From NCBI GenBank assembly GCA_963829055.1, contig CAWHHI010000005.1, forward strand, positions 160,001 to 224,000: 64,000 bases of DNA. Direction: 5' to 3'. Below, in pieces: positions 1 to 63,857 of the stretch. The notes under the pieces were generated by a model, which ran no database searches, was not told the DNA's origin, and saw nothing but the letters and a program-made list of their open reading frames with translations. Position 1 is the stretch's first letter, and each line of letters opens with the position of its first letter. A program made the position numbers and the translations under genes. The DNA is from an uncultured Gemmatimonadaceae bacterium (GTDB lineage: Bacteria > Gemmatimonadota > Gemmatimonadetes > Gemmatimonadales > Gemmatimonadaceae).

Positions 1-2906
1 CTCCGGTGTCCGCTGCGGCCATCGAGGTCGAGGGTGCGCGCCTCGCGACGACGACCAGCGATGACGGTCGTTTCCGCCTAACGGCTGTCCCGGCCGGCTC
101 CCGCGTGATCATTGTTCGCCGCCTCGGCTACGCGGCCATGCGGAAGACCGTCACGGTCACGGACGACCAGCAGACCACGGTCGACTTCGCGCTGCAGTCG
201 GCGGCCGTCGCGCTCGACCAGGTCGTCGTCACCGGCACGGCAGGCGGCGAGCCGCGCCGCTCCATCGGCAACGCCGTCTCGACGATCAACGCGACCGAGG
301 CGTTGTCGAAGTCCGCCGCACCGAACGTGAGCAGCCTTCTGGCGCCCGCGCACCTGGCGTGATCATCGCTCCAACGACGTCACGTCTCGGCGCCGGTCCG
401 ACCATTCAGATCCGCGGCCGCAGCAGCCTCTCGCTCGACAACAGTCCACTGCTCTACGTGGACGGCGTTCGCGTGAGCAACGCGACGGCAGTCGGCGCGA
501 CGTCCGTCTCCGGCGGCGGCTCGAGCTTCGGCGGGCAGAACTCGAACGTCGCGGGACGCCTCAACGACATCAACCCCGAGGACATCGAGAGCATCGAGGT
601 GATCAAGGGCCCGGCCGCGGCGACGATCTATGGAACCGAAGCGGCCAACGGCGTCATCCAGATCATCACGAAGAAGGGAGCGCCCGGCCGGACCGACTTC
701 AACGTCTCGGTCGAGACCGGATCGCTGTATTTCCGCGACGCGGAAGGTCGCATGCCGACGAACTACGTGAAGGACCACGTCGGGCACCATCGTGCGCGTG
801 GAACGGCGTTCAGTCAGGAAGAGGACCGTGGCACGCCGCTCTTCAAGACCGGCCAGACGCGCCAGTACACCGCGTCGCTCTCCGGCGGGCGCGACTCTGA
901 CGCGCTACTACGTCTCGAGCCAGTACGAGAACGACTACGGCATCGAGCCGAACAACTCGCTCCGCCAGTTCGCCCTGCACGCGAACCTCAACGTCGCGCC
1001 GACCTCGAAGCTCGATTTCGGCGACGAGCCTCAACTACGTCGACCTGTCCGCGCACCTCGGCGCCGACTACGGTGTGTCGTCGATGCTCGGGCGCGACCG
1101 TCGGACACGGACTGCTCTTCCGGCCGCACGCGGGTTCTATCCGAATTTCCCGCCGGAGGTTCCGCAGACAGCTGTACGACAACGCGCAGGGCGTGAGCCG
1201 CTTCACCGGCAGCGGGACGATCAACCATCGCCCGATCGACTGGTTCACGCAGCACGTCATCGTCGGCGTCGACTATACCGGCGATGACAGCAGCGCCATC
1301 GAGCAGTTCGCCCGCCGGACCTCGCCGTGTTGCTCGGCGCCAAGCTCGGCCGGCGGCCGCATCGGCCAGACGCTGCGCCACAACACCATCATCACGGCCG
1401 ACTACGCCGGCACGGCGCGCGCGCCACCTAACGTCGTCCCTCTCCTCCGCGACCTCGGTCGGCGGACAGTTCTACCGCACGGAGCTCAACACCAGCTTCC
1501 TCGGCGGGTACGGGCTTCCCCGGCCCCGGCGTCGAGACGGTGTCGGCGCACGGCGAACAAGGCAGGATGCGACGCAGACGCAGACGATCAACACGACGAT
1601 CGGCGCGTACGGCCAGGAGCAGTTCGGGCTGCACGATCGGCTGTTCCTCACGGCGGGCCTCCGCGTCGACAACAACAGCGCGTTCGGCGAAGACTTCAAG
1701 TGGGTGACGTATCCGAAGGTCAGCCTCGCTGGGTCGTGAACGAGGAGCCGTTCTGGCGGGTCGACAAGCGTGATCAACACGCTGCAAGCTGCGCGCAGCG
1801 TACGGCGAGTCGGGCCGTCAGCCGAACGCGTTCGCGGCGCTGCGCACGTTCCTTCCCGTCGCAGGGCCCTGGCGGGTCGAACGCCGTCACGCCGAACTCC
1901 ATCGGCAACCCGGACCTCAAGCCGGAGCGCGGCAAGGAGATCGAGCTCGGCTTCGAGACGGAACTCTTCAACCGGCTCAGCCTCGACTTCACGTACTTCA
2001 GCAAGCAGACCGACGACGAGATCCTCAATCAGCCGATCGCGCCGTCGAGCGGGTTCACCGGCAACCAGTTCGTGAACCTCGGCCGCGTGGACAACCACGG
2101 CATCGAGCTGCAGGCGACGCTTCAGGCGCTCACGGCGAACAACGTCTCGCTGGGACATCGGCGGCAACGTCGCGACGAACCAGGACGAGATCAAGGATCT
2201 CGGCGGCCTTCGGCGAGCGTGGTCGCGAGCGCGGGGCAGACAACGTCGTCGGCTACCCGATCGGCGGCATCTTCACGCAGCCGCGTCGTCTCGGCGGATC
2301 GCGATCCGACCACCGGCCTGGCGACCAACGTGCTGTGCGACGGGCGCGGCTGGCAAGCCAGGCGTGGCGTGCGCGACGGCGCCGTTCGTGTTCATCGGAA
2401 CGCCGACGCCGAAGATGACGGGAGCGGTCACCAACACGGTCTCGATCATGAGCAATCTGCGGCTGTACGCGACTGGTCGACTTCAAGCGCGGCAACGGCA
2501 GTACGAACGCGAACGAGCAGATTCGCTGCCAGGGGCTCATCGGCGCACCGCTCTGCCGCGCGAACTACTACCCGCTCGAGTACTCGCCGATCTACCTCGC
2601 CGAGACGGTCGGGGACGGCGGCAGCGCATCGGCATCGTCGACCAGTTCTTCCAGGACGGCGTCGTTCGCGAAGCTCCGCGAGAGTCTCGGCGACGTACAC
2701 GTTCCCGAACAAGTGGCTGCTGGGGCGGCGGCTCGCGCGCCTCGCTCACGCTCGCCGGCCGCGAGCTGCACACGTGGACCGAAGTACACGGGCACCGATC
2801 CCGAAGTGAACGCGAACAACATCGCGACCACCGCCGTCGCTCCAGGACCAGGGGCTCGATCCCGCCGCTCAGTCGCCTCATCGCGACCTTCAACCTCAGG
2901 TTCTGA
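1..2906 (+). CDS. SusC/RagA-family TonB-dependent outer membrane protein (5' truncated, multiply frameshifted)
   Basis: N-terminal carboxypeptidase-regulatory-like domain (GRFRLTAVPAG..RLGY); plug motifs IQIRGRSSL, PLLYVDGV, DINPEDIESIEVIKGPAAATIYGTEAANGVIQIITKKG; GNPDLKPERGKEIELG; C-terminal FNLRF. Pieces lie in ORFs 6-362, 359-2809, 1284-1739 and 2364-2906. Confidence 0.88.
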
Positions 2907-2909
2907 CCC

Positions 2910-4214
2910 ATGCGAACCCTCAAACTCGCACTGGCCACGTCGCTCGTCGCGGCCTCGGTCACGCTCGCTGGCGTGCACGGACTCACGAGCGCTCAAGCAG
3001 GAGAATCCGGGGCAGCTCGACGCGTCGCACGCTCGTACGTCCCGGCGAACGCGCAGCTGCTCGTCAACGGCGTCATCGCTGATTTCGAGTGCGCGTACTG
3101 CTCGCTACGTCGTCGGCAGCGGCCATGTTCACCGACGAGCTGACGAACGCGTATCTCGCAGTCGAACAACTTCGACTACGACCGCGCGCACGCTTGCTCA
3201 CGAACGCGCACGTACGGCAACGGCTACGTGCGCGCAACAAGCTCAGCAGCCGCCGCATCTACACGACGCTGTCGATCGCGCGCGTCCGCGGGCGACACGG
3301 TCGCCGCGCATCTGGAAGGCGTGGACCGATGCCGAGGTGCCCAACCGATCGAAGCTGATCGGCCAGGCGTCCGCGTACGCCGGCTACAGCCTCGTGCTGC
3401 TCGGCGAGGGCATGTGCTCCGCGGCGATCAACGTCGGTCCGGAGCTCACAGCCGGCGCAGCTCTTCGCCGAAGCGAAGACGCGATTCGACAAGGCGATCG
3501 CCGCGGCGACGACGGCGAACGATGCGGCAACGCTCAACCTCGCGACGCTCGGTCGCGCGCGGGCGCGAGCTCGACCTCGGCGACAAGGCCGCGGCCGCGG
3601 CGTCGACGCCGCGAAGATTCCGGCCAGACGTTCGTCGTCAACACCTCGACCGACGCCGTCAACGTCGCGCCGTCAGAACTTCGCGTTCCTCAGCGTCTCG
3701 AACCAGAGCTCCTGGGCCACGGTCGACACGTCGTTCCGCGGCGTGACGATCAACGGCGCGCCCGGACCCGCGCGTCGCCGTGACGAACGCGCAATCGCAA
3801 CGGAACGGTGGGCGTACCCATCTGGACGCCCGACAAGTACCCGTCGCTCGCGGCGACGATGCCGGTCGCACGCTACGCCGAGGCGCAGCTCATCGTCGCC
3901 GAGTCGAAGCTGGCGGCGAACGACATCCCGGGCGCGGTGACGGCGATCAACGCCGTGCGTGCGACGCGCGCCGGCGTGCCGGCGTACGACGCGACGGGAC
4001 AGACGGCGGCGCAGGTGCTGACGCAGATCATCGAGGAGCGTCGCCGCGAGCTCTTCCTCGAGGGGCATCGGCTCGGCGACCTGCGTCGCTACAACCTGCC
4101 GTTCTCCCGGCAGCGGGCACGCCGTTCCTGTCCGGCGGCACGTACGGCACGCAGACCTGCTTCCCGCTGCCGGACGTGGAGCGCATCAACAACCCGAACA
4201 TCGGAAACCCGTAG
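2910..4214 (+). CDS. RagB/SusD-family lipoprotein (frameshifted)
   Basis: Directly follows SusC; lipoprotein-like signal; C-terminal ARYAEAQLIVAE..AINAVRA..IIEERRRELFLEGHRLGDLRR and FPLPDVERINNPN. Confidence 0.85.
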
Positions 4215-4216
4215 CA

Positions 4217-4371
4217 GTCATTCCGAGCGCGGTGTCATTCCGAGCGGAGCGGCGATCCGGCGCGTAGTCGAGGAATCGAGGCTCTGCTGGATAGAGGTCC
4301 CTCTACAAGACACGAATCGCGATTCCTCGACTCGCTTCGCTCGCTCGGAATGACAACTCGCTCGGAATGAC
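4217..4371. repeat. REP-like palindromic element type I (GTCATTCCGAGCG...CGCTCGGAATGAC, doubled ends)
   Basis: Terminal inverted repeats, inner GAGGAATC/GATTCCTC stem and TAGAG/CTCTA hairpin; related copies at 42956, 48616 and 54924. Confidence 0.85.
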
Positions 4372-4404
4372 AACACTCCACGGACACCCTAGTCCAATAC
4401 GACT

Positions 4405-5537
4405 GTGCCTCGCCTAATCGTTGCTCCACTCGCCCTCGCGTTCGCGGTTTCGTCTGCCGCCGCGCAGGTCTCGCTGCCGCCGTTTCTGGAAGTGCGCGTG
4501 CCGAAGCCGCCAACCGTCGCGACGGCGGAGAGGCGGATCGTTCCTCGCGTACGAAGTGCACGTCACGAACTTCATGCCGCAGGCGGTGACGCTCAAGAAA
4601 GTCGACGTCATGTCGGCAGCTGGCGATCACCGCGTGCTGTTGTCGCTCAGCGACTCATTGCTCGTTCGAGCGGTGACCCGGCCCGGCGCCGCGCCGATGG
4701 GCGGGACCGAGCGTCTCAAGCTCGCGGGTGGCACACGCGCCGTCGTGTTCATGTGGGTTCCCGTGGAGACGAGCGGCGCGCCGAAGACGCATCCAGCATC
4801 GCCTAACGATCGAGACCGGCACGGGCGATAGCGCGAAGACCCAACAGCTCGACGCCTCGGTCGTGCCGGTGACGGCCGAGGCAGTGGTCATTGGGCCGCC
4901 GCTCGCGGCGGCGTGTGGCTCACCGGCAATGGGCCGGCAGCCGAGTCCGGCCACCGCCGCGCGCTCATTCCGGTGGGCGGCGTGCCGGCGATCGCGCAGC
5001 GCTTCGCGATCGACTACGTCATGGTCGGTGACGATAACAAGACGTTCACCGGTGACCAGCTCAAGAACGAGAGCTATCACGCGGAGGGCGTCGACGCACT
5101 CGCCGTCGCGAACGGCGTGGTCGTCGAAGTGAAGGACAGCATTCCGGAGAACATCCCGGGCGTCAACTCGCGCGCGGTCCCGATCACGCTCGAGACGGTG
5201 GGCGGGAATCACGTCGTCATCGACATCGGCGGCGGACACTACGCGTTCTACGCGCACGTCAAACCCGGCAGCCTCCGCGTGAAGCTCGGCGATAAGGTCA
5301 AGCGCGGGCAGGTCATCGCCCTGGTGGGCAATACCGGGAACTCGACAGAGCCGCACCTGCACTTCCACATCTCCGACGGCGATCTCGCCGTTAGGCAGCG
5401 AAGGCGTGCCGTACCGGTTCGAGTCGTTCGAGATCGTCGGACACTGCACGACGTTCAACATGGGGTGTCAGCGTTCGGCGCCGGTGACTCGTAAGGGTGA
5501 AGTACCACTCTCGAACGTGTTGTTGCGCTTTCCGTAG
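4405..5537 (+). CDS. Secreted M23 family metallopeptidase (frameshifted)
   Basis: Signal peptide ending SAAAQ; FAIDY, GNHVVID..YAFYAH, VKRGQVIALVGNTGNSTEPHLHFH motif. Confidence 0.82.
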
Positions 5538-5546
5538 CTCCGGTCT

Positions 5547-5645
5547 GTCATCCCGAGCGATAGCGACGAGGATCTTCTGTGAATGTCATTGTGGCCAGTC
5601 GGCTACGATGCTTCACAGGAGGTCCCTCGCTTCGCTCGGGATGAC
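5547..5645. repeat. REP-like palindromic element type II (GTCATCCCGAGCG...CGCTCGGGATGAC)
   Basis: 13-bp terminal inverted repeat; related arms at 22061-22393, 23931, 26109 and 51852. Confidence 0.8.
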
Positions 5646-5671
5646 AACATCACATCCTCGTGTGGCTATCA

Positions 5672-7333
5672 ATGACTCTTCGCTTCGTTCGATCCTCGCT
5701 CGCCGTCGTCGCCACTGCGTACTCTGCTCGACGATCGCCGTCGCACAAGCGCCCGCCGCGACCTACGACGTCGTCATCCGCAACGGCCGCGTGCTCGACG
5801 GCGCCGGGCAATCCGTGGATTCTCGCCGACGTCGGCGATCAAGGACGGACGCTTCGCGAAGATCGGCCGCATTGCGCGAGCGCGGCACGAACGCGAGATC
5901 GACGCGACCGGCAAGTACGTCTCGCCCGGCTGGATCGACATGATGGACCAGTCGGGCGGCGTGCTGCCGCGGAACGGACTGGCCGAGAACAAGCTGCAGG
6001 CAGGGCGTGACGACGGCGATCGGCGGCGAGGGCGGAACGCCGGTGCCCGCGCAGTCGCGGTCGCCGAGTATTTCGACGACGCTCGAGAAGCAGGGCATCA
6101 GCATCAACTTCGGCAGCTACTTCAGCGAGACGCAGGCGCGCAGCGCCGTGCTCGGCATGTCGGCCCGCGCAGCCGAACGCCGGCGGAGCTCGACCGGATG
6201 CGCGCGATCATGGACACGGCGATGCGCGGCGGCGCGATGGGCATGACGACCGCGCTCATCTATCCGCCGAGCGAGCTACGCGACGACCGACGAGCTGATC
6301 GAGGTGGCGAAGGTCGCCGCGAAGTACGGCGGCGTCTACGCGAGCCACATTCGCGGCGAAGGCCAGGAGGTCGTGCAGTCGGTGAGCGGAGCCGATCACG
6401 ATCGGCGAGAAGGGCGGGCATGCCGGTCGAGGTGTTCCATCTCAAGGTTGCGCACAAGCCGGGGTGGGGCATGCTGCATGGATTCCGTGCGCGCATGATC
6501 GATCGACGCGGCGCGCGCGCGCGGCGTGGACGTCGCGGCCGATCTCTACGTCTACACGGCGGGCGGCACTGGACTCGAGGCGACGATTCCGAGCTGGGCG
6601 TTCGAGGGCGGCAACGATTCGCTCAAGGCGCGGCTCGCGAATCCCGACGATCCGCGCGCGTCTCAAGCGCGAGCAGAAGACCGGCTCGCCGGGCTGGTGG
6701 AACATCATCGAGGCGGCGGGCGGCTGGGACGGCGTCGTGCTCGTCAACGCGCGCAACCCGGACAACGCGAAGTACGAGCAGAAGACGCATCGCGCAGATC
6801 GCGCGGAGCATGAACAAGGATCCCGCCGACGCCGCGATGGGATCTCGTGTCGCAGGGCAGCGGCCGCGTGATGGCGATCTACCACATGATGGGCGAGCAG
6901 GACATCGAGACGGCGCTCAAGTTTCCGTGGACGAGCATCGGCAGCGACGCCGGCGCCGTCGCGCACGTCGGCCAGCCGGACGAGACCGGGCCTGCCGCAC
7001 CCGCGCTCGCTTCGGCAACGCCCGCGCGTGATCGCCAAGTACGTGAAGGAGCGCCACGTGCTGACGCTGCGAGGAGGCGGTGCGCAAGATGACCGTCGTG
7101 GCCGGCGACGCGGATGCGTCTCGCGAATCGCGGCATCGATCAAGGAAGGCAACTGGGCCGACGTCACGATCTTCGACCTCGACACGCTGCAGGATCGCGC
7201 GACGTACGAGAAGCCGATGGAGTTCCCGACGGGCATCGAGTAGGTGCTCGTGAATGGCGTGGTGACGATCGATCACGGCAAGCACACCGGCGCGAAGGCG
7301 GGCAAGGTGCTCTACGGACCCGGCAAGCAATAA
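5672..7333 (+). CDS. N-acyl-D-amino-acid deacylase (amidohydrolase), frameshifted
   Basis: YDVVIRNGRVLDG, YVSPGWIDM, YASHIRGEG, IGSDAG, WADVTIFD, C-terminal VLVNG..TG..GKVL; in-frame TAG at 7241-7243. Confidence 0.82.
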
Positions 7334-7370
7334 GTAGAAGTCAGGCGGTTCTGAACTGCGTCCGGCAACC

Positions 7371-7592
7371 ATCTCAGACGAAAGGCGAACGGATTTTACC
7401 GGATCTGACGGATTGATTCCGGGAGCGCGATAGACGCTGTTGCAACAGCATGCAAAGGGTGAACGGCCTCGGGATGCAGGAGTGTCCCGAGGCCGTTCAC
7501 CCTTTTTCACAGCTCATGCGCAAGCATTTGTCTCGTATTCGGAGTCAATCCGCAAGATCCCCGGCATCCGTTCGCGTCCTACGTCTGAGATG
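7371..7592. repeat. Composite inverted-repeat element (AACGGAT/ATCCGTT arms) enclosing a 21-bp-stem hairpin
   Basis: ATCTCAGACG..GCGAACGGAT..CGGATTGA arm at about 7371-7432 and its imperfect reverse complement at about 7528-7592; related arms at 23877, 24150 and 28075. Confidence 0.7.
7455..7507. terminator. Strong hairpin, probable intrinsic terminator
   Basis: AAAGGGTGAACGGCCTCGGGA / TCCCGAGGCCGTTCACCCTTT stem followed by further T residues. Confidence 0.65.
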
Positions 7593-11829: not shown

Positions 11830-12768
11830 GTGGCGTCGAACCGCACTCTGGTCGTCGGCACGCGCGGGAGCCCACTCGCGCTCACGCAGACCGCATCAGT
11901 CATCGACGCCCTGCGCGCGGCACATGCGGGGCTCGACGTGCGCGTCCAGCGCATCACCACGAAGGGCGACGTGCTGCGCGACGTGCCGCTCGCCACGTTA
12001 GGTGGCCGAGGGGTGTTCGTGGACGCGATCGAGGAAGCGCTGCGAGGGAAGGAGATCGACCTCGCGGTGCACAGCGCGAAGGACCTTCCGTCGCGCGTGC
12101 CGCCCGATCTGGCGATCGCCGCGTTCCTCGAGCGCACCGACCCGCGCGATGTTCTCGTGTCGCGCGCCGGGTCGTTAGGCGAGTTGCCGCTTGGTGCGCG
12201 CGTCGGCACGAGCAGCGTTCGTCGCGTCTCCGCCCTTCGTGCGCTCCGGCCCGACCTGGAAACGCCCGACCTCCGCGGCAACGTGGACACGCGCCTGCGC
12301 AAGCTCGACGCCGGTGACTACGACGCGATCGTGCTCGCCGGTGCAGGGTTGTTGCGACTCGGGCTCGAAGCCCGCGTGACCGAATGGCTCTCGGTCGACG
12401 CGATGCTGCCGTCGCCCGGCCAGGGCGCGTTGGCCGTGGAGGTCCGCGGCGACGATCCGGAAGTCTGGGATCTCGTGCAGCCACTCGCGCACTCGCCGAC
12501 CGCCATCGCACTCGCGGCGGAGCGCGGCTTCCTCGCGCGACTGGGCGCCGGATGCTCGGCGGCCGTCGGTGCGTACGGCACCGTCGGCGCTGACGGCCAG
12601 GTGACGCTGCGCGCGATGATCGGCGCGCCTGATGGCCGATCGGTGACAGGAACGGAGAGTGGCGCCGGTGCGTCTGCCGAAGCACTCGGAGAGCGGCTGG
12701 CCAACCGGCTGCTGGCTGCTGGCGGCCGCGAGATCGCGGCGGAAGGGCAGCGCTGGAGCGTCGCGTGA
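11830..12768 (+). CDS. hemC: Hydroxymethylbilane synthase
   Basis: GTRGSPLALTQ, AVHSAKDLP, GTSSVRR, RGNVDTRLRKL, PGQGALAVE, GCS cofactor Cys. Confidence 0.95.
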   Translation: MASNRTLVVGTRGSPLALTQTASVIDALRAAHAGLDVRVQRITTKGDVLRDVPLATLGGRGVFVDAIEEALRGKEIDLAVHSAKDLPSRVPPDLAIAAFLERTDPRDVLVSRAGSLGELPLGARVGTSSVRRVSALRALRPDLETPDLRGNVDTRLRKLDAGDYDAIVLAGAGLLRLGLEARVTEWLSVDAMLPSPGQGALAVEVRGDDPEVWDLVQPLAHSPTAIALAAERGFLARLGAGCSAAVGAYGTVGADGQVTLRAMIGAPDGRSVTGTESGAGASAEALGERLANRLLAAGGREIAAEGQRWSVA

Positions 12769-28605: not shown

Positions 28606-30141
28606 ATGAAGAAGGGACATGGCGCGGACGGCGATTCGACCGCGTTGTCGGATCCCGACAACCTGTACCGGCTGCTGGTCGAGAGCGCGCGCGATTACGC
28701 GATCTTCGCGCTCGACACCGCGGGTCGTGTATTGAGCTGGAACACCGGCGCCCAGCACCTCAAGGGCTACACGCGAGACGAGATCGTCGGGCGTCATTTC
28801 TCCGCCTTCTATCCGCCCGAAGACATTGCCGCGGGCAAACCGGACCGCGAGCTGACGGACGCGCAGCGCGACGGCAGTGTCGAGGACGAGGGCTGGCGCG
28901 TTCGCAAGGACGGGTCGCGGTTCTGGGCGAACGTCACGATCACGGCCCTTCGTGACGCATCGGGCGCCCTGATTGGCTATGCCAAGGTCACGCGCGATCT
29001 CACCGAGCGTCGTCGAGTCGAGTCCGAGCTGCGCGAGAGCGAAGAGCGCTACCGCGTCCTCGTTCAGGGCGTTCAGGACTACGCGATCTTCATGTTGGAC
29101 CCGGACGGACGCATTGCGAGCTGGAACGACGGCGCCCGGCGAATCAAGGGCTACGAACCCGAGGAAATAATCGGCCGCCACTTCAGCACCTTCTACCCGG
29201 CTGCGGACATTGCATCCGGCAAGCCTCCGTGGGAGCTCGAAGCCGCGGCCCGTGACGGGAAGTACGAGGAAGAGGGGTGGCGGATCCGGAAGGACGGCAC
29301 CTCGTTCTGGGCGAACGTGCTCATTACGGCCATGCGAGGGCGCGACGGAAGGCTGATCGGCTTCACCAAGGTGACACGCGACCTCACCGAGCGGAAAGCT
29401 GCTCAGGAGCGCGCGATCGCCGACGCGCGGCGCATCGCCGAAGCCGAGGCGGCGAGCCGCACGAAGAGCGAGTTCCTCACGTCGATGTCCCACGAGTTGC
29501 GCACGCCGATCAACGCCACGCTGGGTTATGCCGAGCTGCTCGTGATGGGCATCGGCGGCCCGACCACGGCGCAACAGCGCGAATACCTCGAGCGGATCCG
29601 CGGCAGCCAGGAGCATCTGCTTCGCGTCATCAACGACCTGCTCAACTACGGCCGGATCGAAGCAAGTCGGATGCAGTACGACATCACGACCATCCCGCTC
29701 CACAGCATCATAGAGACGGTGTTGCCGATGGTCGCCCCGCAGGCTCGGGCAAAAGCACTCCAGGTGACCCACGCAGCGTGCCCCGCGACGTTGACCGTGC
29801 GCGCCGACCGCGTGAAGGTGGAGCAGGTCGTCCTGAACCTGGTCTCGAACGCCGTCAAGTTCACGACGCGCGGCGGACACGTGACCGTCTCGTGCGCCGA
29901 GCGTGACGATCAGGCTGTGATCGCGGTGACCGACACCGGGCCGGGGATCCCCGCTGAGAAACACGCCGCGATCTTCGAGCCGTTCGTGCAGCTGGGCCGG
30001 ACCCTGACGAGCGGACACGAAGGCACCGGCCTCGGGCTCGCGATCAGTCGCGACCTCGCGCGTGCCATGGGTGGGGACGTCACCGTCGTCAGCACGCTCG
30101 GCCGCGGGTCGACGTTCACCCTCGCGCTCCCGCGCGCCTAA
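28606..30141 (+). CDS. PAS-PAS sensor histidine kinase
   Basis: Two DYAIF.LD..G..SWN.GA / EGWR.RKDG..FWANV PAS repeats; SHELRTP; NAVKFT, DTGPGI, GTGLGLAISR; AAGGAG SD. Confidence 0.92.
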   Translation: MKKGHGADGDSTALSDPDNLYRLLVESARDYAIFALDTAGRVLSWNTGAQHLKGYTRDEIVGRHFSAFYPPEDIAAGKPDRELTDAQRDGSVEDEGWRVRKDGSRFWANVTITALRDASGALIGYAKVTRDLTERRRVESELRESEERYRVLVQGVQDYAIFMLDPDGRIASWNDGARRIKGYEPEEIIGRHFSTFYPAADIASGKPPWELEAAARDGKYEEEGWRIRKDGTSFWANVLITAMRGRDGRLIGFTKVTRDLTERKAAQERAIADARRIAEAEAASRTKSEFLTSMSHELRTPINATLGYAELLVMGIGGPTTAQQREYLERIRGSQEHLLRVINDLLNYGRIEASRMQYDITTIPLHSIIETVLPMVAPQARAKALQVTHAACPATLTVRADRVKVEQVVLNLVSNAVKFTTRGGHVTVSCAERDDQAVIAVTDTGPGIPAEKHAAIFEPFVQLGRTLTSGHEGTGLGLAISRDLARAMGGDVTVVSTLGRGSTFTLALPRA

Positions 30142-30159
30142 CGCCGACGGCCCGGCGGC

Positions 30160-32180
30160 CTAACGCGGTGCCGACGACGCCGGCTGCGTGGAGCGCGGCA
30201 GGATGAGCGTGAACGTGGACCCCTCGCCCGGCACGCTGTCCACGACCAGGTCGCCGCCCATCCCGCGAGCCAGGTCGCGACTGATCGCCAGCCCGAGCCC
30301 AACACCGTCGTGCGGCCGATTCAACGTGCGATCGACCTGCACGAATGGGTCGAACACCGTCCGTGCGCGGTCTTCCGGAATGCCGACGCCCGTGTCGTGA
30401 ACGTGAACCCGCGCCTCGGTATCCGTGGCGCTGCAACTCACCGTGATGCTCCCGCGCTCGGGCGTGAACTTGATCGCGTTCGAGAGCAGGTTGAGCACGA
30501 CCTGCTGGATCTTGTCGTGGTCCGCATGCGCCGTGAGCAACGGGTCACACGCCGCGTAGCAGTACCGCAGCGCCTTCGCCTGCACCTGCGGCGCGATGAC
30601 CGCCTCGAGACCCGACAGCGCCGCGTCGAGCGAGACGTCCTTCCAGTCGTAATGCACCTGCCCCGCGTCGAGCTTGGCGAAGTTCAACACGTCGTTGACG
30701 AGCGTCAGCAACCGCTGCTGGCTGCGGGCCGTTCGCGCCAACGCCTCGGTTTGCGCGGGAGTCACAGGACCGTGAATGCCGAGCGCGATCAGCTGCACGT
30801 AGCCGCCGATCGCGTTGAGCGGTGTGCGCAGCTCGTGGCTCATCACCGCCAGGAAGTCGCTCTTCGCCTTGTTCGCCAGGTCCGCGGACGCCTTCGCCTC
30901 GAGCAACTGCGCGTTGGTCTGCTCCAGCTCCTCCGCCACTGTCTGCGCCTCTTCGACCTGCGCTTCCAGCTCGTCGTGCGTCGCGCCGATCTCCTGACGC
31001 ATGCGGTTGAACGTCTTCGCCAACCGAGCCACTTCATCGCGGCCGCTGTCATTCACCGGACGCGAGTAATCGCCGATCGCGAGCCCCTCGGCCGCCGCCG
31101 ACAGCGCAGCAAGCGGTCGCGTGATCCGCTTGCTGATCGAGCCATGATGCCCCGGCACTCACGATGACAAGGAGCAGGCTGAATAGGCCGAGGCGCATCA
31201 TCGTGGGCGCGTGAGCGTGCCGCGATCACGTCGGTGGGCAGTTCGAGGCTGATGGCCCAGGGTGTCCCCGCGATGGCCGCCTGCGTCACCATGAGATCGC
31301 CGACGCCTGGCCTGGACGCCGTAGATAGCGTATCCGTGGTCGCCTGTCCTTCGGCGCGGCGGCCGGCATCCCGCCCAGCGTCGACCAGAACGACCCGGCG
31401 CGGTTTCTGAAATAGCCCGTCACGTCTTCGCCAATCAGGTCGCGCAGTGCCTGGGACGCCTGGGGACCTCCTGTAACGCGATGCTGCTGTGTGATGTACG
31501 CCGATGCGCTCCCCGTTCTCGTAGATGGGCAGCGCGATCTCGAAGAACACTCGGCCGTGCGATACGTAGAACTCGCTCACACGCGCGGAGTCTGCTCGTG
31601 GCGTGACGTTGTCCGCGGTGCGGCTCGACGCGACCTCGGGCGGTGCCGCTTCAGTCACGGACAGCGAGTCTTTGCCAAGGCGTAGCAGGCGGCGTCCGGC
31701 CGCACTCCAAAGCTCGATTGGCAGCCCGGAATCGGTGGCGGCGGTCAGGCGATCCAGGGCGGTCCGCGCTGCAGCGAGTATCGCGGCGTCCACGGCTGGG
31801 CTCGACGGTTGGCCAGACGTGTTCGAGCGGTTGGAATCCGTCGCGCTCCGGAGGAGCCGCCGTATGGCGGAATCGCTCGCGACCGCATGCTGCAGTACGG
31901 CGCGCTGCTCCGCCCCTCGCGCGACCGAGGTGGCCAGTTGCTGCGTGGCGCGGGCGAGTCGAACCGCCACCGCGTCCCGGGCCGATCGCGTCAACGTGCG
32001 CTCGGTGAGGGCCAGGGACACCGTGAGCACGACGACCAGCACCGCCGTCATGAGGAGCGGCAGCTTTTGTTCGAGCGACAACTGCCGGACGCGGGGACCA
32101 GCAGCGGTCGTAGGCTCCGACGTCGTTGGCGGCAGGGCGATCGCCCGGTGAGAGAGGTATGAGAGTAGCGGTGGGGTCAT
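30160..32180 (-). CDS. Membrane HAMP sensor histidine kinase (frameshifted)
   Basis: N-terminal TM, periplasmic region, HAMP (ITRPL..DEVARLAKTFNRM), SHELRTPLNAIGGY, HATPase boxes. Confidence 0.85.
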
Positions 32181-48748: not shown

Positions 48749-48778
48749 GGCTGTAACGGCAGGTTTACTCTTAGCCGC

Positions 48779-49120
48779 ATGATGCTCCGCGCGCGCAACC
48801 TGTTCCTGGCCTGGCTCACCTACGGCGCCCTGCAGCTCGCGCTGCTGGGCGTCCCGGGCGCAGCCGCGCAGCCAGGCGTCGGGAATCGCGACGCACGGTC
48901 GCAGTCCGAGTCCCAGTCGGTCTCGTTCGGCAAGCGCCTCGTCGCGCCCGACAGCATCGACCGTCGGACCCCGACGACGCCGTTCGCGCCGTCGCGCCAC
49001 ATTGGCCTCGATCTGCCCGTCGTCGCAGGCAGCACGGCCGTCGTTGTCCCGCAGCACCACGACGGCTCCGACGCATCGCTCGCCCTCCCACCCGCACGCG
49101 CTCCACCCGCTCTCGCCTGA
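48779..49120 (+). CDS. Putative secretion-monitoring translation arrest peptide (RAPP) upstream of secDF
   Basis: 113 aa; basic/hydrophobic signal ending AAAQ, low-complexity linker, C-terminal ARAPPALA*; ends 123 nt before secDF. Confidence 0.7.
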   Translation: MMLRARNLFLAWLTYGALQLALLGVPGAAAQPGVGNRDARSQSESQSVSFGKRLVAPDSIDRRTPTTPFAPSRHIGLDLPVVAGSTAVVVPQHHDGSDASLALPPARAPPALA

Positions 49121-49211
49121 GCCGTCGCGCCTCTTCGGCGCGCCCATCACAACTCCGCCGGTCTTCACCTAACGCCGCCCGCGTCCGCGAGCAGGCGTGG
49201 CCGGCGCACGG

Positions 49212-49232
49212 CTTTCCGCGACCCGCGGAAGG
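49212..49232 (+). promoter_or_regulatory. Hairpin overlapping the secDF Shine-Dalgarno sequence
   Basis: CTTTCCGCG-ACC-CGCGGAAGG pairs over the GGAAGG part of GGAAGGAG, which precedes ATG 49244. Confidence 0.5.
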
Positions 49233-49243
49233 AGAGCAGCCAC

Positions 49244-51896
49244 ATGAAATCGATCAGGTGGCGAGTGATCATCATCCTCGCCCTCGTTGTCGCGAGCGTC
49301 TTCGCGCTCGTACCCCGCAGCGTCAAGCAGCGCCTCTACGACTCGCGCACCGGTCAGATGCGCGACACCACCGTCCGCCGCGTTCCCATCAACATGGGCC
49401 TCGACCTTCGCGGCGGTGTTCACCTCGCGCTCGAGGTCGACGAGTCGCGCGGCAAAGTCGCCGATTGCGCCGACGCGATCCGTCGCGCCGAACGCGTCGT
49501 GCGCGCACGCATCGACGAGTTCGGAACGACGGAGCCCGTCGTCCAGATCGCGAGCGACTGTCGCCTGGTTGTCGAGCTTCCCGGCGAGACCGATCCCGCA
49601 CGCGCCCGGTCGATCGTCGAACGCACGGCGTTCCTCGAGTTCCGCATCACGGACGCGAAGGAGCAATTCCGGCGCGCGCTCCCCTCGATCGATGTCGCGT
49701 TGCGACGAGCGGGAGTTGCAAACGCCGCGGCGCCGCGGACGACCGCCAGCGCAGATGTCGTCACCGGTCTCCTCTCGCCCGACAGTGCGCGTGCTACGAC
49801 TGACACCACGATCAACGCGGCCAACGCCACGACCGAGGGCGGCGTGCTGTCGTCGCTCCTCACGCCTGGTCGTGTCCCTGGAGAATTCATCGTCGCCGAA
49901 GAAAGCGTCGCTCAGGTCGAGCAGCTGATCGCGAAGCCGGAGGTGCAGCAACTCGTTCCGCGCGGACTCGAGCTGCGATGGGGCACACCGATCGCGACGC
50001 GAGAGACGCGAGCGTTCCGGCCACTTTACGCGCTGCAGTCGCGAGCCATCATCACCGGCGAGGAAATCCAGAAAGCCGTCGCTGGCCGAGACCCCACGAC
50101 CAACGCGGCCGAAGTGCAGTTCGAGCTCACGCGGCCCGGCGGACGCCAGTTCGGCGACGCGACCGGTCGCAACATCGGCAATCACCTCGCGATCCTGCTC
50201 GACGGGCGCGTACAGGGCGAGCCGCCCGTCATCCGCGACCGCATCACGTCGAACGGACGCATCGAGCTCGGTGGCAAGTCGCTCGAGGAAGCAAACGACC
50301 TCGCGCTCATGCTGCGCGCCGGCGCGCTTCCGGTACCGCTCCATGTCGTCGCCCAGGGAACCATCGGCCCGTCGCTCGGCATGGACTCCATCCGCGATGG
50401 CGTGCGCGCGTCGGCGCTTGCGGTTGGGTTCGTGCTGGTCGTCATGGGCGCGTACTACGGATTCGCCGGACTCCTCGCTGTCGCCGCGCTCGCCCTGTAC
50501 GTGCTCTACTGCCTTGGCGGTCTCGCCGTGTTCGGGTTCAACCTGACGCTCCCGGGACTCGCGGGCTTCGCGCTGTCCATCGGAATGGCGGTCGACGCGA
50601 ACGTGCTGATCTTCGAGCGCATGCGCGAAGAGCTCGACGCGGGGAAACCCGTTAGGCGCGCGATCGATGAAGGGTTTCGGCACGCGATGAGCGCCATCGT
50701 CGACTCGAACGTCACGACCGCGCTCACCGCGCTGATCCTGTACGTGGTGGGCACGGGACCCGTGCAGGGATTCGCGATCACGCTGCTCGTCGGACTCGTG
50801 GCGTCGATGGTCACCGCCGTCTTCGTCACGCGCACGTTCTTCCTCGTGTGGGTGAAAGCGCGTCCGAACATGACGACGCTTGAAGCATTTCACGTTCAGG
50901 CTGTTCGCGAACGCGCGCTACGACTTCATCGGCGTGCGACGCTGGGCGTACGGCGTGACGGCCGCGCTGATCGTGCCGGGCATGATCATGCTCGCCGCGA
51001 CTGGGCATCACGTACAGCATCGAGTTCACGGGCGGTGCGCTGATGCACGTGCGCACGGACGACGCCCGTGGAGACGACACGCCTCCGCACCGCGCTCGAG
51101 CGCGGCGGTGTGAACAACCCGGAGATTCAGAGCTTCGGCTCGGCGCAGGAGTACGTGATCCGCGCTCGTCTCGACGGAGCCGCGGACGGCAACACGCGGA
51201 GCGCCGAGATCGCGGCGTCGGTGAGCAAGGCGCTCGATGCCGACCTGGGCACGGGCACGTATCAGATCGTGCGCAGCGAGGGCGTCAGCTCCGAAGGTCG
51301 GCGGTGAGCTTCAGGAGAAAGCGCTCATCGCGATTCTCTTCAGCTTCGTCGCGACGCTCATCTACCTCGCGTTCCGCTTCGAGTGGCGCTTCGGCCTCGC
51401 GGCCGTGATCGCGACGGCGCACGACGTGCTCGCGACGGTCGCGTTCATTCGCTACCTGGATCTCGAGGTGAGTCTCGTCGTGGTGGCGGCGGTGCTCACG
51501 GTACTCGGCTACTCGCTCAACGACACGATCGTGATCTTCGATCGCGTGCGCGAGAACGTGAAGCTCCACGCGCGCAAGCCGCTGGCGGAGTTGTTGAATC
51601 TTTCGATCAACGAGACGTTGCCGCGGACGATACTCACCGGCGGCACGACGCTGGCGACGGCGCTCGTGCTCTCGTTCTTCGCCGGCGAGGTGATCAAGCC
51701 GTTCGCGCTGGTGATGACGTTCGGCATCATCGTCGGCACGTTCTCTTCGATCTTCGTCGCGTCGCCGGTGCTGCTCGGCATAACGCGGCGTTGGGGCACT
51801 CCGAAGCCGAGTACAAGCAGCAGTGTCATCCGCGCAGCCGAGCCAGCGCGTGTCATCCCGAGCGGCAGCGAGGGACCTTCCGTGACGTCATCGTAG
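49244..51896 (+). CDS. secDF: Protein translocase SecDF, probably fused (frameshifted)
   Basis: MGLDLRGG, LRAGALP, IGPSLG, IGMAVDANVLIFER, IVDSNVTT (SecD); IEFTGG, RFEW, HDV, GYSLNDTIVIFDRVREN, GTFSSIFVA (SecF); no stop or SD between the halves, with a 1-nt shift near 50880. Confidence 0.9.
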
Positions 51897-52173
51897 CCAG
51901 GGCCTGAACGACAACACCAACAGCAAACGGCAACTGCATGACAGGATTGGCAGGATGGACAGGATTGAACAGAGGCTCCGTGTCGCACGCAGGGCCCCTC
52001 CCGCAACGAGCCCGGAACGAGGGGAACGGCCGCTCGGGACGCCACTCTCCGAGAGATGTGTTCCTTCATTCGTTAGGCCCCGCGACACGCTCCCGACGCC
52101 GAGGCGGTCATCTTCTCAATCCTGCCAATCCTGGCCATCCTGTCTGCTGTTGCGGTTGCCGTTTGCGGTTGTC
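51852..52173. repeat. Composite repeat: type II arm plus ACAGGATTG/CAATCCTG inverted pair
   Basis: GTCATCCCGAGCG at 51852; ACAGGATTGGCAGGATGGACAGGATT at 51941; AATCCTGCCAATCCTGGCCATCCTGTC at 52118. Confidence 0.72.
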
Positions 52174-52343
52174 GAGCCCGCCCAGCGGACGTCGAGTGTC
52201 GTTAAGCACGCGATCCTGTCCGGCCTGCCGATGTCGAACGTCCGTCGGGACCGCCATCGTACCTGTCGTCGCGAGTAATAGTCGCAATTCGGTACGTAAT
52301 CGCCGTACACCGTGCCTCGGCAGATTCCGCGCTGGATGTGAAC

Positions 52344-52373
52344 AGCCCCGCTGTCAGCGAAGACAGCGGGGCT
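52344..52373. terminator. GC-rich hairpin between convergent secDF and msrB
   Basis: AGCCCCGCTGTC / GACAGCGGGGCT 12-bp stem. Confidence 0.6.
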
Positions 52374-52414
52374 TTCAGGTCACCTTGCGCAAGCCCACGA
52401 GCTAATGCGTCGTC

Positions 52415-53026
52415 TTATCGCTTCGCCTTCTCGAACAACGCCACATACTGCCCATAGCCTTCCTCGGCCAGCTTCGCCACCGGGATGAAGCGCATCGACG
52501 CCGAGTTCATGCAGTAGCGCAGTCCGGTCGGCTGCGGACCGTCGTCGAAGAGATGCCCGAGATGCGAGTCCGCGTGCGCCGACCGCACTTCCGTGCGCTC
52601 CATGAACAGCGAGCGATCGGTCTTCGTCTTCACGTTCGCCGTCTCGAGCGGCTTCGTGAAGCTCGGCCATCCCGTGCCCGAGTCGTACTTGTCGAGAGAG
52701 CTGAACAGCGGCTCGCCCGAGACGACGTCGACGTAGATGCCCGCCTCGTGATTGTCCCAGTACTCGTTCTGGAACGGACGCTCCGTCCCCTCGTGCTGGG
52801 TCACCTGATACTGCAGCGGCGATAGCTGCTTCTTGAGCTCCGCGTCGCTGGGCTTCTTGAAGTCGGTCATCCGTTTGGCTCCTGTCTTCCCGTTGGTGGC
52901 GGCGACGGTTTGCGCGCCTGCGTGCGTGTTGGCCTGCGCCCCCGCCGCGGTTGTCGCCACGCCTACCATCATCGCAGCCGCGGCAACCGCGAGCCCGCGC
53001 TGGGTGCGACTCAGTCGCGCAACCAT
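52415..53026 (-). CDS. msrB: Peptide-methionine (R)-S-oxide reductase with export signal
   Basis: [40 protein letters not shown]-terminal signal ending AGAQ. Confidence 0.93.
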
Positions 53027-53362
53027 ATAGACCGTTTCCCCGCCTATCGTATGCCAGCCGCGACCGCTCGTTCGAGCGGCCCCGGATTGTCTGAATGGGG
53101 TCCTCACCGGACATATCCGTGTTCGGTACCGATTGTTCCAGGGATAAAGTCCGGACAATGAAGTACGCCTGCCGACCGATGTCGGATCGTTGCGTGCTCG
53201 CCGGATCGGTTGGTCACGCTCGAGGACGGTTCAACCCTGTTCCCGGCGCGCTTGTGGCCCCCGCAGTGACCCACAGCCCGTCGCCATCGGATCGTGTCAG
53301 CTGTCCCGTCCCGGTAATTCACGCCGCGACCAACCTGCTTCAGCGCTCCCTGGCGTCGACCT

Positions 53363-54292
53363 ATGATCTCTCCCCTCCTGCGTGGCCTTCGCGGCACTCG
53401 CCCTCATCTGGCGCCTCTGCTGTGGTCGCGACTCGAGCCACGGCTCAGAGCGTCCCTGATACCGCCTCTGCTCGCGCCGAGTCGCTCTTCGCCGCGAAGG
53501 ACTACGTGGGCGCGGCGTCCGCCTTTCAGGCGCTCACCCGCACCCATCCACAGCAGGCGCGGTACTGGACCCGTCTCGGAACGTCGCTGCAGTTCGCCGG
53601 GCGCCACGACGACGCCGTCGCCGCCTACCGACACGCGATCGGCATCGCGACGGCACCGATCGCCATGTACAACCTCGCGACGGTGTTCGCCACGAAGAAC
53701 CAGAAGGACTCCGCGTTCTACTGGCTGGACCAGCTGGTCACCACCGCGAGCTACACGAACGACAAGGCCGTGAGCAGCGACAACGACTTCGCGTCGCTCC
53801 GCGCGCGACCCGCGCTTCGACGCGCTGCTCGAGCGCATGCGGAACGCGCTGCGTCCGTGCCTAACGCGCAAGGAGTCTCGGATGTTCGACTTCTGGGTCG
53901 GCGACTGGGACGTGAAGAACGCGCAGGGGCAGCAAGCCGGCTCGAGCTCGGTACAGCTGCTGCTCGAAGGGTGTGCCCTGTACGAGAACTGGGTCGACGG
54001 GCAGGGTGGCGGCGGCAAGAGTCTCAACAGCTACAACGAAGAAACGAAGCAGTGGCAGCAGTTCTGGACCGACCAGTACGGCCACGTCACCGAGTACCGC
54101 GAAAGCGAATGGATCAACGGGAGCCTGCGCTACTCCGCCAGGCAGCAGACTCCGCGGGGTCCGTCGCTGATCCACATGACGTTCACGCCGATGAACCCGG
54201 ACCTCGTTAGGCAGTTCGGCGAGACGTCGCTCGACGGCGGCAAGACGTGGACGCCATCGTTCGACCTCTACTATCACCGCCGGAAGAAATGA
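53363..54292 (+). CDS. TPR-containing secreted hypothetical protein (frameshifted)
   Basis: TPR-like helices, followed by an FDFWVGDWDV..GKSLNSY..WQQFWTD..SLDGGKTW domain. Confidence 0.65.
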
Positions 54293-59455: not shown

Positions 59456-59845
59456 TGGCGACGCTGTCACGCGCCTCGTGGGCGCTGCCTGACGACTCGT
59501 CCCAGTTGTCCTCCGCGGCGGACGCTAGTTCGTCGCACGGCATGGACGATGTCGCACGTCCCATCGTCGGTAGAGCCCGAGTGACTACACGGAGATGGCG
59601 GTGCTAGCGCGCATCGGTTCCTGGCGAGCGACGCGCATGTGCTCAGCGCGCTGCGCAGTCACGCGGCCCGCCTCGGCGCGAATGGATTGCTGCTCCTCAA
59701 CACGCGCGGCTCTGGCGGCGTGCGCGGTTCCGGAACCGGCGTGGTGATTGGTGGTCCCCGGTCCGGTGAGGTCGTGGTCGGCAACGTACAGACCGACGTC
59801 GACGAATTCGAGCGCGCGGTGGCGATCCGCTACCGACCGCGTTAG
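59456..59845 (+). CDS. Small hypothetical protein (frameshifted, start uncertain)
   Basis: LRSHAARLGANGLLL..AVAIRY segment in ORF 59639-59845. Confidence 0.35.
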
Positions 59846-59852
59846 GCGACCG

Positions 59853-62784: not shown

Positions 62785-63019
62785 ACCCGTTCTACTAATC
62801 GATGATCCGGTCACGGTTCCATGATGTCTGCGTCGCGCGCGTACGCTCGGATGCTTCAGCACGTAAGCAATTTCCGAGCGCTGCCGCAGGAGGAACCGAC
62901 GACTGCGCTGAACGGTGACGGCTACCGAACTTCCGGGGCGACATTCGAGAGACTCTCGCCACGGCGGCTGACGAAAGGATTCGACGTCAGGCGCAGTGAT
63001 CCGGGGCGGCCGGCTCACC

Positions 63020-63195
63020 ATGCTCGACGCCCGCGCAACGCTCGTGTGAACGCGATCGCGCGGCACATCCAGCTTCTCGAGATGGAGATTCACGGCCGGC
63101 TGTCCGACGCACAGCGCGACGCGCTCGTCCGCGTGGAGCGAAACCAGCGCCATCTGCTGTCACTGATCAACGACCTCCTCGACCCAACCGCGTAG
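63020..63195 (+). CDS. Stand-alone degenerate HisKA (DHp)-like fragment
   Basis: NAIARHIQLLEMEIHGRLSDAQRDALVRVERNQRHLLSLINDLLD aligns with the DHp helices of local kinases; no SHELRTP; start and frame uncertain. Confidence 0.5.
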
Positions 63196-63200
63196 TCGCG

Positions 63201-63857
63201 TTAGGCGGCGGTGCTGGTCAGCCGGGCGCTCGACAGACGGTCGAGCATTTGCGCGGCGGCATCGAAATGCTGGCGGACGTCGAACCCCTTCGGGTCGATC
63301 ACGGACTGCAGGGCGCAGCCGTGAATGAGACTCACCGCGACGCTGGCCACGCCTTCCGCCGTCGCCACCGCCGTCGGCGTAGCCGCTGCCGTGGTGCCCG
63401 CAGACATGGATGGGTCAGCGGTCACGACGGCTGCCGCAACTTCTCTGAACGCGGCACGGTACTCCTCGAGCACTACGCGAATCCGCTGCCGGATCGCGGT
63501 GTTGCGCACGCCAGTGGTCCAGTAGTCGAGAAACAACCGGAAATGCCTCGGATCGGTGGACAGTCGATCCATCTCGGCCCGGAGCAACGCGTGCATCCGG
63601 TCCGAGGGCCGAGTGATCTGGGCGACGCCGTCGGGAATGCGGAGCACCGCGGTCGCGTACAACACGCGATCGAGCAGACTCGCCACGAGCTCGTGCTTCC
63701 GCTTGAAGTGGAACAGCACGGTCCCGTGACTCACGTCGGCTCGCGCCGCGACCGCGCGGAGCGTCAGGGCCTCGAGGCCCTGACGCGCGGCCACGTCGTA
63801 CGCGGCGCGCAGGATGTCTTCGCGCCGCGTTTCTTCAGAAACCTTTCGTCCAACCAT
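63201..63857 (-). CDS. TetR family regulator
   Basis: RREDILRAA..GLEALTLRAVAARADVSHGTVLFHFKRK. Confidence 0.9.
   Translation of the reverse strand: MVGRKVSEETRREDILRAAYDVAARQGLEALTLRAVAARADVSHGTVLFHFKRKHELVASLLDRVLYATAVLRIPDGVAQITRPSDRMHALLRAEMDRLSTDPRHFRLFLDYWTTGVRNTAIRQRIRVVLEEYRAAFREVAAAVVTADPSMSAGTTAAATPTAVATAEGVASVAVSLIHGCALQSVIDPKGFDVRQHFDAAAQMLDRLSSARLTSTAA

Follow-up and report, generated by a model that had tools for sequence, protein, structure and literature searches.

What keeps the word CCTAACG at about one copy per kilobase in the ordinary genes of some Gemmatimonadales soil bacteria, and in some phages? The window, the whole 64-kb stretch of Gemmatimonadaceae DNA analysed here, contains 61 exact copies on both strands (Table 1). 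An earlier note on this DNA had reported the same number of full 7-mers together with an enrichment over chance, and both stand: the coordinates of the recounted copies agree within one base, and 100 dinucleotide shuffles of the window contained 3.32 copies on average and 8 at most. The four stop codons that it attributed to the word (at 30139, 30160, 59843 and 63201) all match ORF ends, and its reading of GTT AGG as Val-Arg in secD agrees with the ORF frame.

Table 1. Copies of the word in the window and location of the candidate reader gene
Feature	Position	Strand	Remark
Dispersed CCTAACG copies, part of the genome-wide RCCTAACR	77..63205	both	61 copies by count
Copy within hem cluster ORF 11830-12768 (+), via TTA codon	11996..12002	-	frame from coordinates
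Copy forming the TAA stop of sensor kinase ORF 28405-30141	30137..30143	+	
Copy forming the TAG stop of ORF 30160-31158 (-)	30159..30165	+	
Copy within secD (49244-51043, +), GTT AGG = Val-Arg	50650..50656	-	
Copy forming the TAG stop of a short called gene, 59639-59845 (+)	59840..59846	-	
Copy forming the TAA stop of a TetR-type gene, 63201-63857 (-)	63199..63205	-	
Candidate reader gene, 100-residue basic protein	G000:C3:271467-271769	+	outside the window; locus L501:7467-7766

The word is present throughout the whole Gemmatimonadaceae genome (G000), the terminus region included, with 6,391 copies of CCTAACG and 5,004 of GCCTAACG, the latter against 102 expected from an order-2 model. The enrichment survives a codon-preserving shuffle, one of the checks proposed in the earlier note: the 5,222 called coding pieces of G000 contain CCTAACG 3,805 times and, after synonymous shuffling within each gene, 298 times (about 13-fold), while for coding GCCTAACG the count is 3,013 and an amino-acid-pair null predicts 22 (about 135-fold). 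Tripeptides of the type PN[ADEGV] are 1.5–1.9 times in excess over reversed controls. The full word is the non-palindromic octamer RCCTAACR, with the core CCTAAC and graded ends (genomic ranking G>A>C>T at position 1 and G>A>T>C at position 8), and most near-miss words are not depleted relative to word-poor relatives (lowest ratios 0.56–0.7). When genes are split by GC3, the word is sparser in the atypical ones (0.46 vs 0.9 per kb). There are also native-looking stretches of 7–16 kb without any CCTAACG. The G000 assembly contains many frameshifts.

A base-calling artefact, the alternative raised in the earlier note, fails as an explanation and is ruled out, since the word is also found in short-read MAGs from other studies (L001, L002 and L006, at 0.6–1.0 per kb) and on two plasmids of a PacBio-finished isolate. 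Logan contigs from four other studies matched most of window positions 44001–53900 at about 95–99% identity, a weak artefact test in which 40 of the 419 differences were inspected. Literature searches, with most subscription journals outside their coverage, turned up no earlier account of either the word or the candidate reader protein. Within Gemmatimonadales the word is patchy, even inside one genus, and its density in related genomes forms a gradient from about 5 to 1,200 sites per Mb. Three families share the identical word, with no dialects. The cultured Gemmatirosa kalamazoonensis is word-rich: one of its two plasmids has 869 sites and the other 786.

The lack of strand bias, on which the earlier note had rejected Chi and KOPS, was confirmed. 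Copies on the G-rich and C-rich strand numbered 1,546 and 1,619 (p = 0.2), showing no replichore orientation. The dif site of G000 lies at C16:~560,800, and the KOPS flanking it gave 49:3 and 10:64, whereas the word gave 161:203 on the left arm (p = 0.03) and 246:244 on the right. A polar signal like Chi or KOPS is thus ruled out, the word having no polarity where KOPS is polar. What had looked like a local polar motif in relatives poor in the word proved to be integron arrays.

Checks had likewise been proposed for spacing and conservation. Copies avoid one another within about 300 bp, in every orientation of the pair: below 75 bp the pair correlation is 0.2, by 300–350 bp it has climbed to 0.9, and past about 500–600 bp it is flat, whereas control words show values of about 1 or more even at close distances. 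Two variants, GCATAACG and YCCTAAC, also keep clear of strong sites, and a search for helical or other short periods in the pair distances gave nothing clear apart from 3 bp. Between species, 70 of 117, 23 of 70 and 16 of 50 sites were kept in three comparisons, with control retention of 0.24, 0.22 and 0.16, respectively. No relative-only site was located 150 bp or less from any of 66 shared sites (7% at random positions), and there was no clear excess of compensatory site gain near lost sites.

The earlier interpretation as a lineage-specific, non-polar DNA-level signal, distinct from Chi and KOPS, is upheld; its methyltransferase option is now unlikely. Such a site would have been amplified, HIP1-style, by methylation-linked repair or uptake, and a candidate enzyme exists, a Type IIG-like protein that resembles IIG/DrmMI models and adjoins an SNF2 helicase (G000:C8:73551-78317). 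All 48 genomes of the order in the panel have an orthologue, and seven outside the order gave only weak or partial matches. According to one report, HIP1 affects transformation through methylation (PMC13756078). However, the SMRT methylome of word-rich G. kalamazoonensis comprises RGATCY, ATGCAC and CCAGN7TCA only (PMC3974934), and a word-free methylome in a word-rich strain therefore disfavours a methylase site. Methylation of the m6A and m4C types at the word is largely refuted; the SMRT method leaves m5C possible. The IIG-like enzyme is also found in word-poor genomes, and neither its sequence, compared by eye in a partial alignment, nor its neighbour genes differed between rich and poor genomes. 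A D12 methylase was rejected as driver (present in 15 of 41 genomes, it does not track the word), a search of G000 for N6, N6/N4 and C5 methylase families found none, and no C5 methylase was found in G240, G014 or G211 either. Together with the graded ends and the mostly undepleted near-miss words, this makes a methylation site very improbable.

We also consider an origin in integron recombination highly doubtful. The word equals the commonest attC core (GTTAGGC / GCCTAAC), the few clustered copies in word-poor genomes are attC arms of cassette arrays (58 arm pairs in G273), and the two strongest eighth-position variants match the two arms of such arrays. The arms GTCTAAC and GGCTAAC, however, are not enriched genome-wide (0.5- and 1.0-fold), dispersed sites are unpaired and lie in frame within genes, and paired R''/R' arms 50–150 bp apart are confined to true cassette arrays. 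Neither intI nor the IntI N-terminal domain follows the word; a stand-alone IntI N-terminal fragment (C4:2853-3239) was discarded on the same grounds. An Rfam search of one cassette array gave no match.

A gene that does track the word lies outside the window and encodes a small basic protein, our candidate reader. In a profile of 80 genomes (strong match, E<1e-16; kin among them not independent; density bins drawn from two slightly different word patterns), 19 of 23 genomes with at least 90 sites per Mb had a strong match, as had 7 of 15 with 30–90 and 1 of 42 with fewer than 30. The gene is also present in 5 of 5 genomes of g71, a genus of another family. When loci of named genomes were retrieved by the protein alone, 66 of 75 loci of at least 5 kb had at least 0.1 sites per kb in their flanks vs 9 of 109 control loci, which were secD or methylase loci not matched by phylogeny; seven of the 75 had no site in their flanks. 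G039 carries the gene at just 18 sites per Mb. Conversely, four word-rich genomes (G240, G216, G036 and G040) lacked a match in the protein search, G240 having 1,130 sites per Mb at 96% completeness, and an alignment-based search of these four, run without a positive control, gave none either. No match was obtained in the eight genomes of family f3, no homologue among 12 loci examined in a tandem-site search of these genomes without a match, and no reader gene on the G. kalamazoonensis plasmid pieces (362 kb).

Upstream of this gene the core is concentrated: the 400 bp in front of it contained 146 cores, where the densities of the individual loci predict 17.9, with at least one core at 67 of 76 loci. 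In 7 of 7 genomes of the genus, head-to-tail arrays of 2–5 cores, mostly with an 8-bp period, are located directly upstream. G000 has nine site pairs within 14 bp, and the reader-promoter pair is the sole same-strand one at 8 bp. For six of 25 orthologues the 450 bp upstream are free of cores, and the array would be equally expected if the gene were a mere target of another reader.

The reader homologues are stand-alone proteins of about 90–130 amino acids with Lys/Ala-rich basic tails, for which an AP2-like fold of three strands and a helix is predicted. The AlphaFold model places the strands at residues 20–25, 30–41 and 47–56 and the helix at 63–85 (core pLDDT 78–85). Its fold matches include the DNA-bound PfSIP2 AP2 domain (Z 6.1, rmsd 2.8, 57 residues aligned) and, at lower scores, the GCC-box domain (Z 4.2) and the arm-binding domain of an integrase (Z 4.1); every Z is below 8, and RNA-binding folds have the same arrangement. 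The ESM Atlas cluster at 0.93 contains 10% Pfam AP2 members. Pfam returned no family at E≤10, PF00847 included, and Foldseek no match at E≤0.001. With no signal peptide seen by eye, the protein appears to be cytoplasmic, judging from its sequence.

The main rival is a DNA uptake signal, one of the options of the earlier note, which we rate as rather unlikely. A biased competence machinery would import fragments carrying a DUS/USS-like word, recombination would spread it through the genome, and the small protein would be a bystander or a cytoplasmic helper. Uptake sequences show each of the DNA-level properties of our word, including a non-polar density of about one per kb, fewer sites in atypical genes and the tripeptide excess, the last as described for USS/DUS genomes (PMC2817400). 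comEC was found in 40 of 41 genomes and dprA in 5 of 5, and G000 has pilM/N/O plus seven pilin-type genes. Temperate phages of USS hosts acquire USS according to another report (PMC6776037), and both near-complete word-rich phages here encode integrases. Against uptake, word-poor genomes equally have competence genes and pilins: one profiled pilin had matches in 48 of 48 genomes, a ComEA-type domain occurs in 55 of 55 without tracking the word, and an ORF adjoining a pilin gene does not follow it either. Inverted terminator pairs are lacking (+/- pairs at 8–25 bp, g=0.04), one word without dialects serves three families while being patchy within a genus, and two partial phage records, at 2.1–2.7 per kb, exceed most bacterial genomes counted, one bacterial locus reaching 3.1. 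Nor does uptake account for a gene that follows the word, encodes no signal peptide and has copies stacked in its promoter.

The phages bear on a further alternative, namely that the small protein reads the word as a self mark and shields DNA from a nuclease or silencer, with phages mimicking self. Five to six tailed-phage records have the word inside structural genes, with coding counts of 30, 55, 26, 12 and 16 vs shuffle means of 2.0, 2.5, 1.9, 0.8 and 0.65, and the reader gene is absent from the word-bearing records. Both this and the scarcity of sites in atypical DNA would suit a self mark. However, the analysis turned up no nuclease or silencer as a partner, the native-looking gaps of 7–16 kb would be left uncovered, and 40–250 sites per Mb in many gene-bearing genomes are too thin for a tight shield. 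The phage hosts are putative (one gene of G279 shares 68% identity with a gene of G000), and a prophage search of word-rich MAGs gave one terminase match in five genomes and no portal match in five. We regard a self mark as unlikely.

The nucleoid-protein option of the earlier note gains, now that it has a concrete candidate protein. The small AP2-like protein probably binds RCCTAACR, and for nucleoid organisation as its main purpose the chances seem about equal either way. We are likewise evenly divided on the reading as a whole, in which RCCTAACR would be the site of an AP2-like, sequence-specific nucleoid-associated protein that regulates itself; its binding, autoregulation and structural role are what we infer from the above. 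The reader would occupy the chromosome and the megaplasmids at thousands of sites, and would regulate its own gene through the promoter-adjacent head-to-tail sites. One occupied site would cover about 300 bp; because it would serve that distance, a second site nearby would bring little benefit, so that sites would be kept evenly spread, selection holding them there despite the rare-codon cost. Phages long resident in such hosts would acquire sites as well, and the protein would prefer GCCTAACG over GCCGAACG or GTCTAACG duplexes. We lean slightly towards a self-regulating AP2-like reader for which the word may be a sequence-encoded, methylation-free chromatin map with a granularity of about 300 bp, running through genes, stops, megaplasmids and phages. 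If true, a protein inside the cell would be reading a hyper-abundant bacterial word. Since there is a candidate reader, a natural density gradient and, in G. kalamazoonensis KBS708, a carrier that is cultured and fully sequenced, protein-driven writing of a word against codon bias is directly testable. In addition, the word flags candidate phages of little-studied soil bacteria and reveals foreign stretches in genome bins.

Hyper-abundant words are known in few bacterial groups (DUS, USS and HIP1), and ComP is the reader of DUS. Noc, SlmA, MatP, ParB, KOPS and Chi each combine a dispersed chromosomal word with one reading protein, but their sites number in the tens and are mostly palindromic and region-biased, or else are polar, unlike the thousands of non-polar sites found genome-wide here. 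AP2-type domains recognise short asymmetric words. The modelled sheet of three strands plus helix resembles AP2/ERF, ApiAP2 and integrase arm-binding domains (the HPI arm domain was matched); unlike AP2 domains, the candidate is a stand-alone bacterial protein with basic tails, no Pfam AP2 match and a long second hairpin.

DUS of Neisseriaceae and USS of Pasteurellaceae are similar to our word in being non-palindromic and non-polar, in standing about once per kb in any open frame, in the tripeptide excess, the sparseness in foreign genes, the presence in temperate phages and the graded flanks around a strong core (PMC2817400, PMC6776037, PMC3458573, PMC1939737). The word here is shorter (6-bp core), has no terminator pairs and no dialects and is patchy within genera, and the protein co-occurring with it looks cytoplasmic rather than like a pilin. 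HIP1 of cyanobacteria is likewise a hyper-abundant octamer that arises via substitution, is conserved at orthologous positions, is patchy and has a proposed nucleoid role (PMC5861425, PMC13756078). In contrast to HIP1, our word is non-palindromic, is not an m6A motif in a strain rich in it, shows short-range avoidance (long periods being outside the scope of the analysis) where HIP1 has a 10–90 kb period, and has a candidate binding protein, none having been detected for HIP1 according to that report (PMC13756078). Novelty in kind would hinge on the candidate reader, since the word by itself would fall with the DUS and HIP1 words. Even 30 years on, the driver of HIP1 has yet to be settled; our word has a specific candidate reader.

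The heptamer CCTAACG, reported as over-represented in the earlier note, occurs 61 times in the window versus 3.3 expected from shuffling, and the whole genome (G000; 7.78 Mb, 20 contigs) contains 6,391 copies, with every contig at 0.64–1.09 per kb. The nearest relatives of its secD are Gemmatimonadaceae MAGs. Because the assembly has many frameshifts, codon tests were carried out with our own gene caller (77% coverage), from which 5,222 high-scoring coding pieces were retained. These contain 3,805 copies versus 298 after synonymous shuffling. Of the TTA codons, which the earlier note regarded as rare, 70% overlap the core CCTAAC; 1,104 of 1,785 PN[ADEGV] tripeptides are encoded by the word. 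The supply of stop codons noted in the window is also seen genome-wide, 222 of 673 TAA and 173 of 1,357 TAG stops lying inside the core. Frameshifted genes are numerous in window positions 359–7500 and elsewhere (TonB receptor, 359–2809; premature end of hemL at 15675), as expected if indels from long reads had been left uncorrected. Further enriched words are TCATTCCGA and TGTCATCCC (REP-like) in G000 and, in another genome (G021, L114–L115), AGCGGGAA; CTAG is depleted to 0.29.

Compared with an amino-acid-pair null, enrichment in G000 is 135-fold for GCCTAACG, 68-fold for ACCTAACG, 50-fold for GCCTAACA, 19-fold for CCCTAACG, 13-fold for GCCTAACT, 5.8-fold for GCATAACG and 2.4-fold for GCCTGACG, and at most 1.5-fold for the remaining inner changes. 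RCCTAACR emerges as the consensus, and its flanks carry little information. With 1.2 Mb of DNA from word-poor relatives as reference, the majority of near-miss hexamers have a ratio of about 1 (lowest 0.56–0.7). A fixed core with graded ends fits the binding preference of a protein.

The absence of strand bias claimed previously was confirmed: no replichore polarity was detected in G000, with KOPS at dif as positive control, and no gene-strand bias in its coding pieces (1,840 sense, 1,965 antisense). Sites avoid each other at short range, with a pair correlation of 0.2 below 75 bp, 0.57 at 175–200 bp, 0.9 at 300–350 bp and about 1 past 500–600 bp, alike in every orientation. Genes of the lowest GC3 decile contain 0.46 sites/kb and typical genes about 0.9; divergent spacers have 0.46/kb and convergent ones 1.5/kb. 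Around the terminus (G000:C16:400000-675000) its density is lower, at about 0.55/kb versus about 1.0/kb on contigs C5, C9 and C20. Three contig-end stretches of 31–50 kb have odd tetranucleotide content, lack the word and contain certain housekeeping genes a second time; they are probably foreign, chimeric joins from other organisms.

The word is lineage-specific, as had been suggested: at least 90 RCCTAACR/Mb were found in 10 of 250 phylum genomes, all inside the order, and the 81 phylum genomes outside the order reach at most 39/Mb. These tallies include four unpublished genomes (G013, G085, G124, G203), all at low background, and no claim depends solely on them. All six other genomes of the genus have 350–680 GCCTAACG/Mb, G014 has 1,250, and eight further genomes among 40 relatives have 37–224. 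The word is likewise dispersed in sampled pieces of G040, G010, G020, G036 and G014, and between species its sites are about 1.5–2.5 times as conserved as control hexamers.

A candidate reader (G000:C3:271467-271769) was chosen by eye, for its AP2-like pattern, from a list of small lysine-rich proteins. The gene is single-copy in G000 and preceded by two back-to-back word copies and weak variants. The family counts 250 members by the first search and 280 when clustered at 50%, named solely hypothetical protein and, where a taxon is stated, from Gemmatimonadota; 20 columns are invariant among 48 sequences. The predicted structure has three strands and a helix flanked by disordered basic tails. 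A fold search with this model returned, with modest scores, three Toxoplasma mitoribosome chains as the best matches, followed by PfSIP2 AP2; the Toxoplasma mitoribosome includes ApiAP2 proteins. In an 80-genome panel, with densities known beforehand and bins set afterwards, matches occur in 19 of 23 rich (≥90 sites/Mb), 7 of 15 intermediate (30–90) and 1 of 42 poor (<30) genomes; none was found in the rich genomes G240, G216, G036 and G040 or in family f3. Searching with the protein alone yielded 79 named loci, of which one weak non-Gemmatimonadota match and one fragment were set aside. With the 800 bp of the gene itself excluded, at least 0.1 sites/kb were found in 66 of 75 loci (≥5 kb) versus 9 of 109 control loci; three control records whose titles point outside Gemmatimonadota had been removed. 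Upstream of the gene, cores are 8-fold over local expectation: all seven genomes of the genus carry head-to-tail arrays directly before a -35/-10-like pair (by eye), and four of five genomes of g71, a genus of another family, share a copy about 100 bp ahead of the conserved core; upstream cores are missing in 6 of 25 orthologues. These orthologues, the genomes without a match and the modest fold scores speak against the candidate.

Taken together, co-occurrence, promoter arrays, graded consensus and the 300-bp avoidance make one intracellular word-binding protein the simplest account. Such a protein would limit its own synthesis and would need sites spread over all replicons. There is about an even chance that its coating of the DNA serves nucleoid organisation; self-marking against a nuclease or silencer is a doubtful alternative. 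That the word originates from methylation is very unlikely. Both megaplasmids of the Gemmatirosa kalamazoonensis type strain are as rich as G000 (869 sites/1.11 Mb and 786/1.04 Mb), and its three published m6A motifs do not include the word (PMC3974934). An IIG-like N6 methylase with SNF2 helicase, present in 48 of 48 Gemmatimonadales tested and apparently inherited vertically in the order, is as frequent in word-poor genomes; as a guess, its site may be ATGCAC of the Gemmatirosa methylome. Gemmatirosa plasmids (L233, L249, L250) also carry tandem 12–15-bp micro-repeats with one word per unit.

Where copies of the word cluster in word-poor genomes, they form attC arrays of integrons. The identity of the word with the attC core speaks for an integron origin, which we nevertheless consider highly improbable; the identity may be due to chance, or the candidate protein may also bind cassette arrays. 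G273:C1:1250000-1370000 (L235–L240) is a cassette array of superintegron size (58 attC-like pairs/120 kb), and G000 has an integron integrase with a short array (C20:201600-208985) and a truncated intI N-terminal fragment (C4:2853-3239). Many viral contigs in IMG/VR (L259, L262, L277, L282, L306, L322, L324, L333) show attC-like paired arms every 300–500 bp, apparently gene-cassette arrays within phage genomes; L282 and L299 lie next to a gene resembling intI, and direct terminal repeats are present in G276.

Word-free contig ends, methylase genes and word-bearing phage records
Feature	Location or record	Sites	Remarks
Word-free contig ends	G000:C6:5440-55038; C6:591808-623330; C11:1-44055		deviant composition, housekeeping genes
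IIG-like N6 methylase and SNF2 helicase	G000:C8:73551-78317; L135:5099-10593		
Tailed phage	G274	43 in 45.6 kb	encodes integrase
Tailed phage	G279	83 in 82 kb	encodes integrase
Tailed phage	G278	35 in 17 kb	
Tailed phage	G280 and L480	18–19 in 7–8 kb	
Tailed phage	L394	5 in 6 kb	

No description of the word or the candidate protein was found in the literature searched, most subscription journals being outside its coverage. New here are the candidate reader, a cultured carrier whose published methylome is without the word, the spacing law and the phage copies. IMG/VR was scanned four times for records with two copies of the word, with at least 238 matches, the majority due to chance or to paired arrays. 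Six of the records, two of them nearly identical, are tailed phages in which copies are scattered inside genes, head, portal or tail genes included. Three lower-GC viral contigs (L263, L265, L273) carry GCCTAACG on one strand every 150–500 bp; here the same letters are used differently, in a polar fashion. An uptake drive, a possible though rather unlikely explanation, would account for the DNA pattern but leaves the candidate gene unaccounted for. The word-bearing phages, whose hosts are unproven, fit both an intracellular reader and a drive like that of the uptake sequences (USS; PMC6776037).
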